Source: Alphaproteobacteria bacterium (GTDB lineage: Bacteria; Pseudomonadota; Alphaproteobacteria; MPNO01; UBA830). Taken from it: a stretch of DNA of 64,000 nt. The notes beneath the pieces are model-generated. The model worked only from the letters and a program-made list of their open reading frames with translations, had not been told where the DNA came from and made no database searches. The translations under genes and the position numbers were made by a program. Where the stretch lies: the NCBI GenBank assembly GCA_964291215.2, contig OZ219790.1, forward strand, positions 2,176,001-2,240,000. The letters run 5' to 3'. Each line of letters begins with the position of its first letter. Position 1 is the first letter of the stretch. Positions 36,977 through 42,842 of this stretch are shown here, one piece after another.

Positions 36977-37193
36977 CCTTCCGCATGCGTGACGGGCAGC
37001 GATGGCTATCGTCCCGCACCCCGCTGCCGCAGGCGCCTCCAAACACGGTTTTTCATATGTTATGAGGGATGAGCGAGTTGGTCAAAGCGCCGGAAAATCC
37101 GGCCGCCGCAGAACACTGTAGTCGGAATCGGCGGCGCCACCGCGTTTCGGAGATATTGTCGATCACCGCGGCATCGTGCATATTCCGCATCGT

Positions 37194-37284
37194 GGAGGGA
37201 TGGCCGAGCGGCTTAAGGCGCACGCTTGGAAAGCGTGTATACGGTGACCCCGTATCGTGGGTTCGAATCCCACTCCCTCCGCCA
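37194..37284 (+). tRNA. tRNA-Ser(GGA)
   Basis: GGAGGGA/TCCCTCC acceptor stem, anticodon arm CACGC-TTGGAAA-GCGTG, long variable arm, GTTCGAATC, encoded CCA. Confidence 0.98.
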
Positions 37285-37619
37285 CCCCGCACTTTCTAAG
37301 TCGTAAAGCCCATAATTTGCCATCTGTTCTCACCATGGGTGCGCACAGGAGGAAAGCTAATGCCCGAACATTAGCTGTTAACGCGAAAAAGGGCGCCGAT
37401 GGTCGCCAGCGCCCTCGATTGTATAGAGAGTTTCGGTCGGTCAGCCCGACAGGACAAAAAAAGACACCCAAAGAAGCTCGCCAAGTGCATGGTGAGAATT
37501 TACGGGTGTCCCATGCCCTGTCAACAGGTAGCGGCCGCTAACGACTCTCTCAGCAGAATTTTTTTCGGGCCGGTTCGCCCGCCATGGACACCAGAGAACG
37601 TCCCCCTCTCGATCCGCCA

Positions 37620-38040
37620 CCGGATCCGGGCTGCGCTCGCCTCGCCCGAACGTGATCAGATCGATCCCCTCCGCCCCGGCAAACCGCTCGAGCGCCGCGA
37701 CACAGGCCCGCGTCATCGGCGCCATCAGGGCCGAAAACGGCACCGGCATGCCGCGAACATTCCGCAACAAGTAGGCCACGCCACCCGGCGCCTGAAGCAT
37801 CGGCACGTAGCCGTTGAGATACAGCCTGTCGAGGCATTCAAGCTCCAGCGTGACGTGCTCGCGAAGAACCTCACCGGCGCTCCGTGCCATAGTCATCGTC
37901 AGGACTCCGTTCAATGGGGTCACCACATGGCACATTGCCACCAACGCCCAACCGCGACCATCAGGCGGATCACTCCGCAGAGCGGAACAGCGAACCGAGT
38001 CCGCAGACCTCTCGTCGGTCTGAGGCGAAACCTCGCTGGG
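37620..38040 (-). mobile_element. 5' fragment and leader of an uncharacterised mobile-element-associated gene
   Basis: MARSAGEVLREHVTLELECLDRLYLNGYVPMLQ..FGRGER, then truncated; recognised from memory as the start of a widespread ~500-aa family. Confidence 0.5.
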
Positions 38041-38283
38041 CTTTGCTGTCTTCTGCTGTCCGGAGGTTTCACGGTGTGCCGGATTTTCTGGCTTCGGGGC
38101 CGTCCGCGGTCGTCGCCGGCACGTGGGCGGGTTGTTTTCGGGATGTGGGCGGGTTGTGGGCGGCGTCCGGGAATCGGCCGGACACCATTGGCGCTCAGGG
38201 CTGCGACGGCTTCCCGGCGGTCGAGCCGCCGCCGTGTTTCGGCGAGGCTCTCGCGTCGGTTGGCGAAGATCGCCGCGAGCGCG
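38041..38283 (-). mobile_element. ISAs1 family 3' remnant
   Basis: Inverted near-copy of 45487-45727. Confidence 0.75.
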
Positions 38284-38565
38284 GGGGCCGATATTCTCTA
38301 CGGCAGCGACCGCAAAGACTGGCTCCGTGGTGAGGCGGGGGACGACATCCTCTACGGCAATACCGGCTACCTCTACGGCAATACCGGCTACGACATGCTC
38401 TACGGCGGCAACGACGGAGACCGCACGGCCACGAAGGCGACGAACTCCTCTATGGCGGCATCGGCGACGACATCCTCAATGGCGAGGCCGGCGACGACAG
38501 ACTCCACGGCGACGAAGGTGACGACATCCTCAAGGGTAGCGACGGCAGTGATCGGTTTATCTTTA

Positions 38566-40157
38566 GTAACTGCTCACCCCCTGGTTCCGGCTTGATGTCG
38601 GGGTAGAGTAACGAACGGGTTTTCGTGGAGATTTGACACTGCAGGCCGATTCGTTTAGTGGTGGTTATCGAGAACGACGAGGACCGCCAGTGGGCTACTT
38701 TGGATCGAAGGCGACGAGCAGGCTGTGCCAGCTGCTTCCGGGGCTCCAGCCTCCGCATGATCTGTATGTGGAAACGCATCCGGGAGACGGCGCGCTGATG
38801 AAGCGCAAGGCGGAGTACCGGAAGATGCCGCCGGGTGAGCGCCAGGCGATGCTCGCAACGATCATGACCGTCGAGGCCGGGTGATGGCGACGGTCAACGC
38901 GGCGCGCGAGGAGTTCGAAGCGGCCAAGACCGCGGCGCTGCCGGCAAGGTGGCGGAAGAGGCCGTGATCCGCGTCCTCGTCATCCTGCTCGACATCCTCA
39001 TCGTCGTCCTTCTGGAGAAGACTACGCACGAGCCGGAACTCCGGTCTGCCGCCGTCACAGACGGACGAGAGCGTGCCGGAAGCAACGGCAAGGGCCCGAA
39101 GCCGAACCGGCAGATGGGCGACAACCTGCGCAAGACCATCGTCGAGGAGACGGTCGCGGCCTGCGACGCCTGCGGCGCCGACATCGACGGCCCCGTCGAT
39201 CGGGAGCGCCGCACGACATCGTGTTCGAGGTCGTCGAGCGCCGCGCCGAGATCAAGGAATGCCCGAAGTGCAAGGCCCGGGGCCGGTTCCCCGACAACAT
39301 CCCGTGCAGTACGGCATCGGCATCCAGGCCCTCGTCATCAACCTGCTGGTCGCCCAGATGCTATCCCTGCGCCGTCGCGTTCGTGCAGGCGATCTCCGGC
39401 ATCAAGCTCTCCGAGGCCTCGGCTATGCTTTCACGATGCGTCATGGGAGGAGGCCGCCGTGGCGCACCTCCTGCAACGCCCGATGTCGACGATTTCGGAT
39501 CAACAGTAAGTGGCTCCATGTCGTGGGACCCTGACGTGCAAGTTCCCGCACCGCAAGCGCGGGCAAGAGATCGGCCCGTGCTACAAGGGCGTCCTGGTCC
39601 ACGACTGCTGGGCCTCGTACATGGGCTATGACCAATGTAGCCACCAGCTGTGCGGCAGCCACCTGCTGCGCGAACTGACCTTTGTCGTCGAGGCTACCGC
39701 GCGACTGATGAAGAGCCTGCTCCGCGAGGTCTGCCACAAGGTCAACAAGAGCGCATCCAAAACCCTGAACGACGCCGGGCGCGAGCGCTACCGCACCATC
39801 AGGGCGCCAGGGAACTGCCCGACATCCCGCCGAAAGGAAAACGTGGACGCAAGTCCGACGCGCACAACCTGCACGAACGTCTCGTGAAACACGAAAACCT
39901 GCGCTTCACAGACGACCCCAACGTCAGCTTCACCAACAATGCCGGAGAACAGAAAATCAGGATGGCAAAGGTCAAGGTGTCCGGATGCTTCCGCTCCACG
40001 CAAAAGCATGGTGCCGGGGCTCAAGCTACCTCACCTCCATGGCCGCACTCGGCTACAACCCACTCGTCGCCACCCAGATCGCCCTCGACGGAAAAGCCGC
40101 AGACATCATCAACGAGCACTATGGCCAATCAGAACCCAACAAGGGGTGAGTAGATAC
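38566..40157 (+). mobile_element. IS66 family (single-ORF, ISBst12-like) element with methyltransferase passenger, degraded
   Basis: TIR GTAACTGCTCACCCC / GGGGTGAGTAGATAC; 8-bp TSD TATCTTTA at 38558-38565 and 40158-40165; LVHDCWASY, HQLCGSHLLREL, FTNNAGEQKIRMAK. Confidence 0.92.
38690..38884 (+). pseudogene. DNA adenine methyltransferase relic (internally deleted)
   Basis: GYFGSKA..PPHDLYVETHPGDGALM resembles Dam-family motif X/I (Y.G.K..PPH..Y.E.F.G.G); stop overlaps the transposase ATG (TGATG at 38882-38886). Confidence 0.65.
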
Positions 40158-40670
40158 TATCTTTATTGATTACCGGGACAACGGTAGCGACACGATCGTC
40201 GATTTTCAGGACAGCCGGGACGTCATCAACATCAGGGATGTGCAGGTGCAGACCCGTATTTCGTATGACGGTGGCCTCACCTGGGTCGGAGAAAATGTCG
40301 GAAGCGGGAGCTTCGACGATCTCACCATTGTCCAAATCGGGCGACGACACGGTCATCACCTACGATGGCGGGTCAATCATGTTGGAGGGGATCCAGGCGT
40401 CGCAAATCACCGAGGCCGATTTCGACTTCATTGGCTGAGGCGGCAATACGTCATGTCGCCCGAGGTGTGCGATGCGGGCGCACCTGCGGTGCAAGGTGAT
40501 CTCATGCTTGTTGATGTGATGTGATCGGAGTTCTGATGGGTGCAGTTCTCGCATGGCGAATGCAAGTCATTGATTTAACGCGGTTGTGTGGTCGCGAGGC
40601 AGCGGCAAAAACGGGTTTTCGTGACAATCGCCCGTTTCAGGACAGGATTTTGTCACGGGCCGAGCGGTGG

Positions 40671-42036
40671 AGGTGGGAACGCTCTGCACCGGAAGATGCG
40701 ATATGATATTGAAGATAATCCACAGCATCAGGAGCCCTCCCATGTCAGTTTCGCAGCCTTCCGCGTCGATCGATATTTCCGGCTTGCCGCCTCGGGTTGT
40801 CGAGGCGGTCACGCAGATAACCGCAGTTTGTCATCGGCAACTCGGTTCGCAGCGCTCTGCCGAGGCCTTTGAGGAAACGGAGCGGCGGGTGCGTGAGAGC
40901 GTGTACGCGCTGCGAGATCCTGGGCGCCGAGGCCCGGGACGATGGTGCGCCCCGGATCGAGCGGGACGGGCAGAGATGGTTCCGTGTGGCGCCGAAGACG
41001 ATGATGACCTCGCCCGGTGACCTTTTGGCGTGCGCGCTACCGCACCGGCGCACGCTGACGGTCGCTGATGCCGGTGGACGAAAGCCTCGTCGACGACTAC
41101 CTGACACGACCGGCGGCTTGGGCTGATGATGATGGGCGGCAGCGGAGGCGTTGTTCGGCAAGCTCGGTGCCATGACGCCAGCACCTTGCAGCACCTGACC
41201 ATGCAGGAGCGCCGGGAAAGTCTCGGCCCCGACATCCGTGAAGCGGAGGACATCCCGCAGGACGCGGTCACCGCCTCGCTGGACGGCGTCATGGTGGCGG
41301 GCCAGCGGGGACGGCCGTTCCGAGGCCTGCTGGCGCGAGGCGGCCTGTGGCACGGTCTCCTTCCACGACGGTGAGCGCCTGAAGACCGTCTGTCTCGGCC
41401 GCATGCCCGAGGGCCGAAAGTGCACACTGAAGGCGCAGCTCGCAAGCGAAGTCGCTCATATCAGGCGGAAACGTCCCGAGATCAGCGCCATCGCCGACAA
41501 CTGGACCTTCCTCGGGGGTCTCGAGCCCGAAACCGAGGTGATCGACTTCTGGCATGCCTGCGAGCATCTGCGCGTGGCGGCCGACCATGCAGCGGCGCCC
41601 TACTGGTTCGAGAAGTACCGCGAGATCCTGCGTCACGCCCCCCGCGGCATCGACAGGGTGATCCGGGCGCTGCGCCACCTTCGCGACACCGCGACGCCAA
41701 CATCAACAGGGAACTGTCCTTCTTCCGCAAGCATCGCCACCGCATGCGCTACCACGCGCTGAAGCAACCGGCTCGGGAATTGTCGAGGCGGCAAACAAGA
41801 CCCTCGTCACACAGCGCATGAAACGCTCCGGCATGCGCTGGCGCATCGTCGGCGGACAATCACCTTCCGCGCCCTGCTTGAAGCCAGCCGCTTCGAGAGC
41901 GCGTGGACGGCCATGATCGGTGCAGACGACGCACCAGCCAACGACAACATCAGCCCAAATCACACCCCGGCACTGGCCGCATGAGATGAACAAGTGGTAC
42001 TGAGCCTGCAACTGTGCCATACGAAACTCCCACCCC
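40671..42036 (+). mobile_element. ISKra4-like transposase element, degraded
   Basis: SLDGVMV, WREAACGTVS, IDFWHACEHL, GSGIVEAANKTLVTQRMKRSGMRW in shifting frames. Confidence 0.8.
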
Positions 42037-42697
42037 TAAAAAAAGAAATCAAGCCGTAGCTGAAGCAGTACTGGTGCATTCCACCGCACCGGAGCGCACA
42101 GTTCGTGGCGGCGGACGTGCTTGACATTTATCAGCGGGACTTTGCCAGGGACGAGGTGCTGGTGTGCATGGATGAAACCAGCCGGCAGCAGACGAAGGAA
42201 CCCCCCCGGTCAGCCGGAGGTGGTCGACTATGAATATGAGCGCAACGGCACGGCCAACCTCTTCCTGGCCTTTGCGCCCAACGAGAACTGGCGCACGGTG
42301 AAAGTCACCGACCGCCGCGGGACTGGACGCACTTCATCCGGGAGCTTGCCGACGACCATTTCCCCGACAAGAAGATCGTGCTGGACAATCTGAACACGCA
42401 CAGTCACTGTATGAAGCCTTCGAGCCCGAGGAGGCGGGTGCGAAAGCGGTTCGAGTTTCGCTACACGCCGAAGCACGGAAGCTGGCTCAACATGGCCGAA
42501 ATCGAGATCGGTGCGCTATCGCGGCAGTGCCTTCGGCGACGCATTCCCGACCGCGACACCATGCTGCGGGAGACGGCGGCGTGGGTGGAACGGCGCAATG
42601 CGGCCGATGTCACTGTCGACTGGCGTTTCACGACGAAGGATGCCCGGACGAAACTGAAGTCTCTATATCCATCATTACAATAATGTCATACTGCTAG
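42037..42697 (+). mobile_element. IS630 family element, 3' half, degraded (copy A)
   Basis: A-run, YWCIPP, VCMDE, DYEYERNGTANLF, LDNLNTH, YTPKHGSWLNMAEIE; ends at CTAG 42694-42697. Confidence 0.9.
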
Positions 42698-42842
42698 GGC
42701 GAGTGAAGGCCAGGTACTCGATGTCAGCGGGATCGCCGACATCAGGCCAAAACCGCACTTCCAGATCCGGCAGTTCGGCACTGATCGCCGCGCGCCAATC
42801 CGCGCCCGTTCCCATCAGGAGGTTGCAAATCAGAAGCGCCAT
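42694..42842 (-). pseudogene. 2-hydroxyacid dehydrogenase (GhrA-like) N-terminal fragment cut by IS630
   Basis: MALLICNLLMGTGADWRAAISAELPDLEVRFWPDVGDPADIEYL ends at the IS630 CTAG. Confidence 0.65.

Follow-up and report, generated by a model that had tools for sequence, protein, structure and literature searches.

An Upf31-like methyltransferase-fold gene within IS66 elements: a candidate self-repressor of the transposase, lost from an abundant lineage

Some insertion sequences of the IS66 family carry, when intact, a small gene for a methyltransferase-fold protein within their terminal inverted repeats (TIRs) and ahead of the transposase gene, and we propose, with a probability of roughly 0.6, that its product is a portable self-repressor that throttles the transposase by binding to a palindrome within the gene's promoter. 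This proposal rests on sequence comparison and on analogy with the plasmid protein Upf31, and it starts from the anatomy of the element, the fold of the protein, the conserved palindrome, the kinship with Upf31, the swapping of the cassette and the loss of both gene and site from one lineage. As we picture it, one promoter inside the left end would yield a presumably bicistronic transcript of the small gene and the transposase; a dimer of the protein would bind the palindrome between the −35 and −10 boxes through its basic C-terminal helices, block RNA polymerase and shut down both genes together. Entry into a naive cell would then be expected to allow a burst of transposase followed by shut-off, with repression, exerted in trans, tightening as copy number rises. 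Dedicated repressors are, to our knowledge, uncommon in simple insertion sequences.

The window analysed here, a stretch of 64,000 nt from an alphaproteobacterial genome (contig OZ219790.1), carries a dead, non-autonomous copy of such an element at 38566..40157. IS66 elements have GTAA-starting TIRs and are flanked by an 8-bp target-site duplication (TSD); the window copy presents a GTAA-type left TIR (38566..38583) and a right TIR on the minus strand (40140..40157) that match at 15 of 18 positions, enclosed by exact 8-bp TSDs, TATCTTTA, at 38558..38565 and 40158..40165. The right junction shows no differences in contigs from two sequencing runs (X1 and X2, which belong to the same study and possibly represent the source samples). 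Inside the left end, on the plus strand like the other features of this copy described below, are the −35 hexamer of the predicted cassette promoter, TTGACA (38633..38638), a decayed operator-like palindrome, GCAG-N10-TTAG (38641..38658; RTAG-N10-CTAY in the family), a poor −10, TAGTGG (38656..38661), which the palindrome overlaps, and a GAGGA (38679..38683) that may serve as a ribosome-binding site; a sigma-70 scan found no promoter here.

The open frame at 38690..38884 is a 64-codon relic of an Upf31-like methyltransferase-fold gene, as seen by alignment to two sister copies, P0001 and P0002. It is an in-frame fusion of residues 1-41 to the last 23, read from the sequence as GYFGSKA...PPHDLYVETHPGDG followed by the C-terminal helix, and it lacks 155 of 219 codons, DPPY among them. 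The junction (38801..38811) coincides with an 11-bp direct repeat of which the intact gene has two copies, and the relic evidently arose by a 465-nt deletion at this repeat that removed DPPY as well. The TGA of the relic overlaps the ATG of the transposase (38884) in a TGATG at 38882..38886. The transposase itself (38884..40149), of the single-transposase type, is a pseudogene with its stop codon inside the right TIR; fragments of it match PF03050 (DDE_Tnp_IS66; E 4e-7 and 3e-4), it shows 31 short deletion sites of 5-7 nt against longer sister copies, and tblastn matches to the intact transposase of locus L034 are spread over three reading frames. The copy is dead because its transposase is broken in this way, with DPPY deleted besides. 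TIRs, TSD, a methyltransferase relic with a retained C-terminus and the TGATG overlap had all been proposed in a sequence-only reading of the window, and each is present where that reading placed it. The insertion target was a gene remnant with RTX calcium-binding repeats (38266..38565, resuming at 40166..40438; PF00353, E 1.8e-8, 27-nt repeats), of which the 3′ part (40166..40438) has no Pfam match. Other decayed repeats and transposase fragments are nested round the insertion at 37441..38250 and 40540..42700, and a tRNA-like sequence at about 37190..37285 adjoins this nest. Another left end from the element's own family, cut down to about 95 bp that include the promoter, runs leftward from 55744 on the minus strand and abuts the right end of a different element.

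The source genome (6.15 Mb, two contigs) is rich in repeats, 479 of 1231 tiles having a second match, and the window lineage, at about 190 copies, is the most abundant repeat found in it, the next family having about 100. Genome-wide matches to the element ends number 222 left and 184 right, 156 of them paired; the ends lie beyond chance since 106 of the 156 pairs are flanked by an exact 8-bp TSD, for which the chance expectation is about 1 in 65,000. The middle of the small gene has been lost from 171 of the 184 left ends that have its start and kept in 13; a 42-codon stub is found in 94 of 222 left ends and the 64-codon fusion of the window type in 12, while the TGATG overlap is kept in 167 of the 189 copies that have the 5′ end of the gene. 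Two copies, P0001 and P0002, preserve the whole 219-aa frame including DPPY, both with interrupted transposases, and no full-length transposase of the lineage was found in the genome (150 of 339 candidates scored). The same genome holds at G000:C1:574248-574491 a 22-mer that occurs 96 times at a spacing of about 73-75 bp, a likely CRISPR repeat.

Relatives of P0001 number 2,730 at 90% clustering. In a survey of a genome collection, the best 78 of 565 loci came from 17 genomes, titled mostly Alphaproteobacteria but also Dehalococcoidia, Tectimicrobiota and Binatia. The search for intact copies was successful, in that both IS ends were present in the fetched DNA around methyltransferase-fold homologues with DPPY at 73 of these best 78 loci, with an exact 8-bp duplication at 54. 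The gene overlaps the next open reading frame by 1, 4 or 8 nt at 75 of the 78, in 19 cases as TGATG, and the downstream proteins of 76 form one BLAST cluster; those of five intact relatives were scanned and all five have a full DDE_Tnp_IS66 domain (PF03050). The closest intact elements, of 2260-2328 bp, are filled by a 219-aa gene and a 486-aa transposase without tnpA or tnpB, an organization which we take to be that of the ISBst12-like group of IS66. With that group they share the GTAA-type TIRs, the 8-bp TSD, the PF03050 DDE transposase and the lack of tnpA/tnpB in the 2.3-kb relatives; they are set apart by an additional gene upstream, which codes for the methyltransferase-fold protein and has a promoter palindrome of its own, and by the occurrence of the cassette on a TnpC-type element too, where tnpB is encoded on the other strand. 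In that element (L308:975-3974, genome G436) the cassette lies ahead of a canonical TnpC, and a likely tnpA accompanies tnpB.

Among 80 metagenome loci a downstream open reading frame was called in 66, and 56 of these belong to the same IS66 transposase BLAST cluster; the remaining downstream genes encode a DDE_Tnp_1 transposase, an Ogg-HhH glycosylase and an AAA ATPase. In these 56 loci and one more (n=57) the genes overlap in just two, whereas 49 have a gap of 2-30 nt. Presence within IS66 ends is thus general and the TGATG overlap lineage-specific; as a family-wide feature the overlap, whose conservation the sequence-only reading had put up for checking, is ruled out. Nor does its picture of a single transporter-IS subfamily hold, the cassette being associated with some non-IS genes and with IS66 transposases from at least five clades. 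The gene is patchily distributed, with matches in 14 of 401 genomes of the phylum, mostly weak ones, and in 6 of 41 near relatives. At L311:1888-3335 (G337), L105 (G127) and L274 the unit of promoter, palindrome and gene is coupled to an Ogg-HhH glycosylase gene, and this pair faces an operon of QueC and a PfkB/nucleoside-deoxyribosyltransferase in a defence-like arrangement.

The predicted structure of the intact protein (pLDDT 78.8) has its best fold matches in Escherichia coli Dam and DpnM (E 3.7e-7, TM 0.50-0.55), at 13-15% identity. Every one of the 85 unique rows, drawn from loci that were gathered with patterns including these motifs, has E28, G32, G34 and DPPY; in pattern-free searches DPPY is present in 120 of 120 phmmer hits and 142 of 147 distant representatives, and the catalytic motif missing from the relic is accordingly conserved among its homologues. 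Sequence similarity to the D12 class is confined to weak profile matches below the Pfam cut-off: the Pfam D12 profile (PF02086) has no match in the genome or in P0001, and a sequence search of solved structures gave spurious TPR matches only, while related atlas clusters are named DNA adenine methylase. Enzymes of the Dam/D12 class have a helical target recognition domain placed between motifs III and IV. The intact protein has in common with these N6-adenine methyltransferases (EcoDam, DpnM; PF02086) the fold and a motif I that precedes DPPY, but only 39 residues lie between its D50 and D90, and alignment of a homologue to a related profile pairs profile positions 9-65 with residues 2-58 and 177-251 with 84-153, so that about 26 residues stand against about 112 profile positions. 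On the strength of these 39 residues and of the profile gap of about 86 positions, the Dam-type helical recognition domain appears to be absent, and two basic helices at the C-terminus are extra relative to the Dam/D12 class. The order of motif I before DPPY fits a Dam-like catalytic domain without its insert. It is the order seen in these sequences, although the accessible text of the paper on Upf31 puts that protein in methylase group beta (PMC11997246).

Over 222 aa the intact protein is 45% identical to Upf31.0 of plasmid pB3 (E 4e-67), C-terminal domain included. According to the accessible text of Elg et al. (2025; PMC11997246), Upf31 (upf31.0) of IncP-1beta plasmids represses its own promoter, from 4.76 to 0.09 XylE units, this repression needs the C-terminal domain and is lost in the mutants Y180A, F185A and W198A, and no methylation was seen by restriction digest or SMRT sequencing; the same text makes no mention of insertion sequences, transposases or phages. 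Full-length homologues of the relic are methyltransferases in fold and DPPY; methylation itself was not detected in the sole tested relative, Upf31. The equivalent of W198 is invariant (85 of 85 unique rows) and that of F185 is F, H or Y in 77 of 85, but in the two intact proteins of this genome, P0001 and P0002, the residue equivalent to Y180 is H and that equivalent to F185 is H or R. Besides identity over the full length, the IS-borne proteins and Upf31 have in common a two-part build, W198 and the geometry of a −35, an 18-bp palindrome and a −10. They differ in that the IS-borne gene leads a transposase and in the palindrome arms, RTAG here and ATCG in upf31; Upf31 has plasmid-wide clusters of sites and a predicted KorB partner, the IS element one site and no KorB, and in a quick tree Upf31 forms a clade separate from the IS-borne proteins.

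Upstream of the gene an exact TTGAC(A/C/T) is found in 140 of the 154 loci with enough upstream DNA, and 75 of the 82 unique promoters contain, at a fixed position between −35 and −10, the palindrome TAG-N10-CTA. Its left arm, which contains no promoter element, is conserved to 98-99% and its spacer positions to 50% at most; since the right arm overlaps the −10, the symmetry is partly a promoter constraint, which speaks against reading it wholly as an operator, and the left arm alone is free of this constraint. The outer pair covaries (A-T 55, G-C 8, mixed 12; Fisher p 3e-4, the kin compared not being independent), and each arm has an adenine that hardly varies. This geometry recurs in the pB3 upf31 promoter, where the arms are ATCG-N10-CGAT and a C replaces the invariant adenine of the IS arms. 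In 74 phage upstream regions the frame occurs at spacing 10 in 32 versus 0-7 at other spacings, and in 0 of 74 inside the gene, counted with a pattern that had been widened after inspection of these phage sequences. Five of six intact elements checked have a single site, at the promoter, and the sixth has none; operator-like sites were not found at the right end in any of the six. A CATCG-type palindrome near the ribosome site, spotted by eye, was dropped as it is not conserved. In homologues on viral contigs (L136-L215), DPPY is present in 79 of 80 and clusters of related 18-bp palindromes lie upstream, as in the IncP-1beta repeats.

The self-repressor reading draws support from this kinship with Upf31, the invariant W198 equivalent and the palindrome at a fixed place in the promoter, from the single promoter site per element and the same geometry in the upf31 promoter and in phage regions, and from a cassette that leads non-transposase genes too (Ogg-HhH glycosylase, AAA ATPase, DDE_Tnp_1). 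Of the three functions that the sequence-only reading had offered, control of the element's own transposition is the best supported, as a prediction from the promoter palindrome and Upf31 kinship; restriction evasion and a change of the host methylome received no result in their favour. The predicted KorB partner of Upf31, for which the IS has no counterpart, argues against the self-repressor. So do the retained SAM-binding and catalytic residues, not obviously needed by a pure repressor, and these raise the possibility, to which we give considerably less credence and which is compatible with repression by binding, that the protein is an active methyltransferase of very high site specificity and that the switch is the methyl mark it places on the adenines of its promoter palindrome. 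Such an enzyme would account for the invariance of E28, G32, G34 and DPPY, the latter also in pattern-free searches, and for the near-invariant adenine in both arms, and a long bipartite site, which would be rare in E. coli, could have escaped SMRT motif calling; methylation-dependent promoter control is known for AhdI, according to the accessible text of PMC12707154. Yet methylation went undetected for Upf31 in the accessible account (PMC11997246), the upf31 site has a C in place of the adenine in question, and the protein appears to lack a Dam-type recognition domain. The autorepressing methyltransferases of restriction-modification systems (M.Ecl18kI, M.SsoII, M.EcoRII) and AhdI-type control, described in the accessible part of PMC12707154, offer a functional parallel in which a methyltransferase controls its own promoter, but they have a fused repressor domain and a partner nuclease, and no nuclease is present here.

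Homologues are found on 193 plasmids, 134 of them predicted to be conjugative, and on at least 331 viral stretches, which would suit a cargo methylase of low specificity or with an anti-restriction role that shields the element, or the vehicle it travels on, during transfer, the more so as low specificity would agree with a missing recognition domain and as orphan, degenerate methyltransferases of mobile elements are known (PMC12707154, accessible text). We regard such cargo as improbable: a non-specific enzyme should have shown itself in the SMRT test of Upf31, a cargo role would explain neither the dedicated palindrome nor why the gene stands first, ahead of unrelated genes, and 171 of 184 copies in this genome spread or persisted without the gene core. 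Transporter IS as defined in the accessible text of PMC9330008 resemble these elements in having an extra gene inside the TIRs that moves with the element; here that gene lies ahead of the transposase under a shared promoter, and the element itself is its predicted beneficiary. The sequence-only idea of a transporter IS is weakened in that the shared promoter, the lead position and the operator-like site argue against a passenger, and the gene behaves more like a regulatory component that brings its promoter and operator-like site along.

Comparison among elements suggests that the cassette is both exchanged and selected. Between groups, identity is 60-74% for the small proteins and 20-36% for the proteins encoded downstream. 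For 15 elements a single clade for the genes of A-type transposases was rejected (AU p 1.2e-4), as was the joining of those transposases that the gene tree joins (AU p 1.5e-5); these AU tests used quick trees, and the second grouping was picked after the gene tree had been seen. The incongruent trees together with the identity contrast show a cassette that has moved between transposase lineages. Over eight pairs the dN/dS of the small gene is 0.16-0.43, below that of the transposase in seven. A neutral hitch-hiker, retained while the transposase needs just the promoter and ribosome-loading site, would be in keeping with the window lineage, where promoter, 5′ stub and mostly the overlap persist although the core is lost from all but 13 of 184 copies and the 42-codon stub is all that remains in 94 of 222; given the low dN/dS and the retention of the gene across at least five transposase clades with repeated swapping, we think it very unlikely. 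Both this hitch-hiking and the anti-restriction cargo fit less well than a self-repressor or a methyl mark on the operator.

A sister family in the same genome, family C, allows the cassette to be compared within one host. It has 13 left ends (one of them at L118, G000:C1:333835-334485), 11 with exact TSD, a perfect palindrome and 10 intact genes. Its 11 full copies differ by 1-11 bases from one reference, and all have a transposase with a frameshifted 5′ half and an open DDE half; four unrelated TnpC-type open frames are present in the host genome. All ten short deletions shared in family C hit the transposase and leave the gene core untouched (p about 0.03), while one 9-nt difference falls in the variable tail of the small gene. 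The decaying genes of the window lineage have 15 short-deletion sites in 13 copies, which shows such DNA to be mutable, and the spared core adds to the low dN/dS and the swapping in favour of the self-repressor. Against this, nine of the ten deletions lie in the first 600 nt of the transposase and the DDE half, hit by one in ten, is nearly spared as well, so that uneven hot spots could suffice as the cause of the clean gene core.

Beside this family, the window lineage has a decayed site (both consensus arms in 0 of 189 copies), altered aromatic residues, a gene core that is mostly lost and about 190 copies eroded by 5-7-nt deletions. The loss of the site and the altered residues in the window lineage belong to one clade and hence count as one event. 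The roughly 190 copies without the cassette versus 13 with it fit a release from repression, in a single comparison. Copy number alone is no proof that a brake was lost, since another family here reaches about 100 copies and the cassette-bearing element of G436 has 22 full-length copies of the small gene. Elements of the window clade in other genomes, with one to three of four symmetric pairs, a non-aromatic residue 181 and intact genes, show no runaway, and these less symmetric sites count against the self-repressor. A more ambitious version, which we advance as speculation, has a methyltransferase without a recognition domain acting as a portable governor that would both bind and methylate its own operator and so count copies, this genome being a natural knockout in which the loss of operator and gene let one lineage burst to about 190 copies while its governed sister stayed at 13. 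That the unit of promoter, palindrome and gene would be traded in this governing capacity among IS66 clades, plasmids, phages and defence-like operons is an equally speculative part of it.

The short deletions are a feature of the whole genome. Gaps of 5, 6 and 7 nt between repeat copies number 3362, 6227 and 3572, those of 4 and 8 nt 592 and 632. In 198 kb of single-copy DNA compared with a congener (G401), 6-nt losses number 25 versus 2 and losses of 5 or 7 nt 10 versus 6, an excess of 6 nt as expected if frameshifts are removed by selection. The 5-7-nt deletions are also seen in run contigs (three runs, one study), and this together with the in-frame bias in single-copy DNA makes an assembler artefact unlikely. 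Across 111 copies, deletion sites are recurrent and agree poorly with the SNP tree (retention index 0.19 versus 0.47). GAC/GTC is found in 17 of 39 deleted pieces versus 7.9 expected, as one of six motif sets tried; TCGA and ATC are not enriched (1 and 4 of 39), hairpin tips as deletion sites were rejected (p 0.51) and microhomology is weak (at least 3 nt in 15% versus 7%). Four other genomes lack the excess in most of their copy pairs, Ku was not found in five genomes searched, and the MutS and MutL frames are open. A 7-nt deletion through DPPY, seen in 11 of 13 decaying copies, was dropped as a sign of selection against catalysis, a neighbouring hot spot being hit in 12 of 13.

A literature search at title and abstract level, with ISfinder and the main IS reviews outside its scope, found no paper on an IS66-borne methylase. 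What is new in this genome is that its most abundant repeat is a lineage without site and gene, next to a sister family of 13 copies in which both are kept. The dead window copy thereby has its value as a member of a natural loss-of-function series. If the self-repressor reading is true, the conserved 18-bp site would be a direct target for asking whether the Upf31 fold methylates anything, thousands of annotations as 'DNA adenine methylase' (2,730 clusters) would denote regulators, and the copy number of IS66 elements would be under a testable built-in control.
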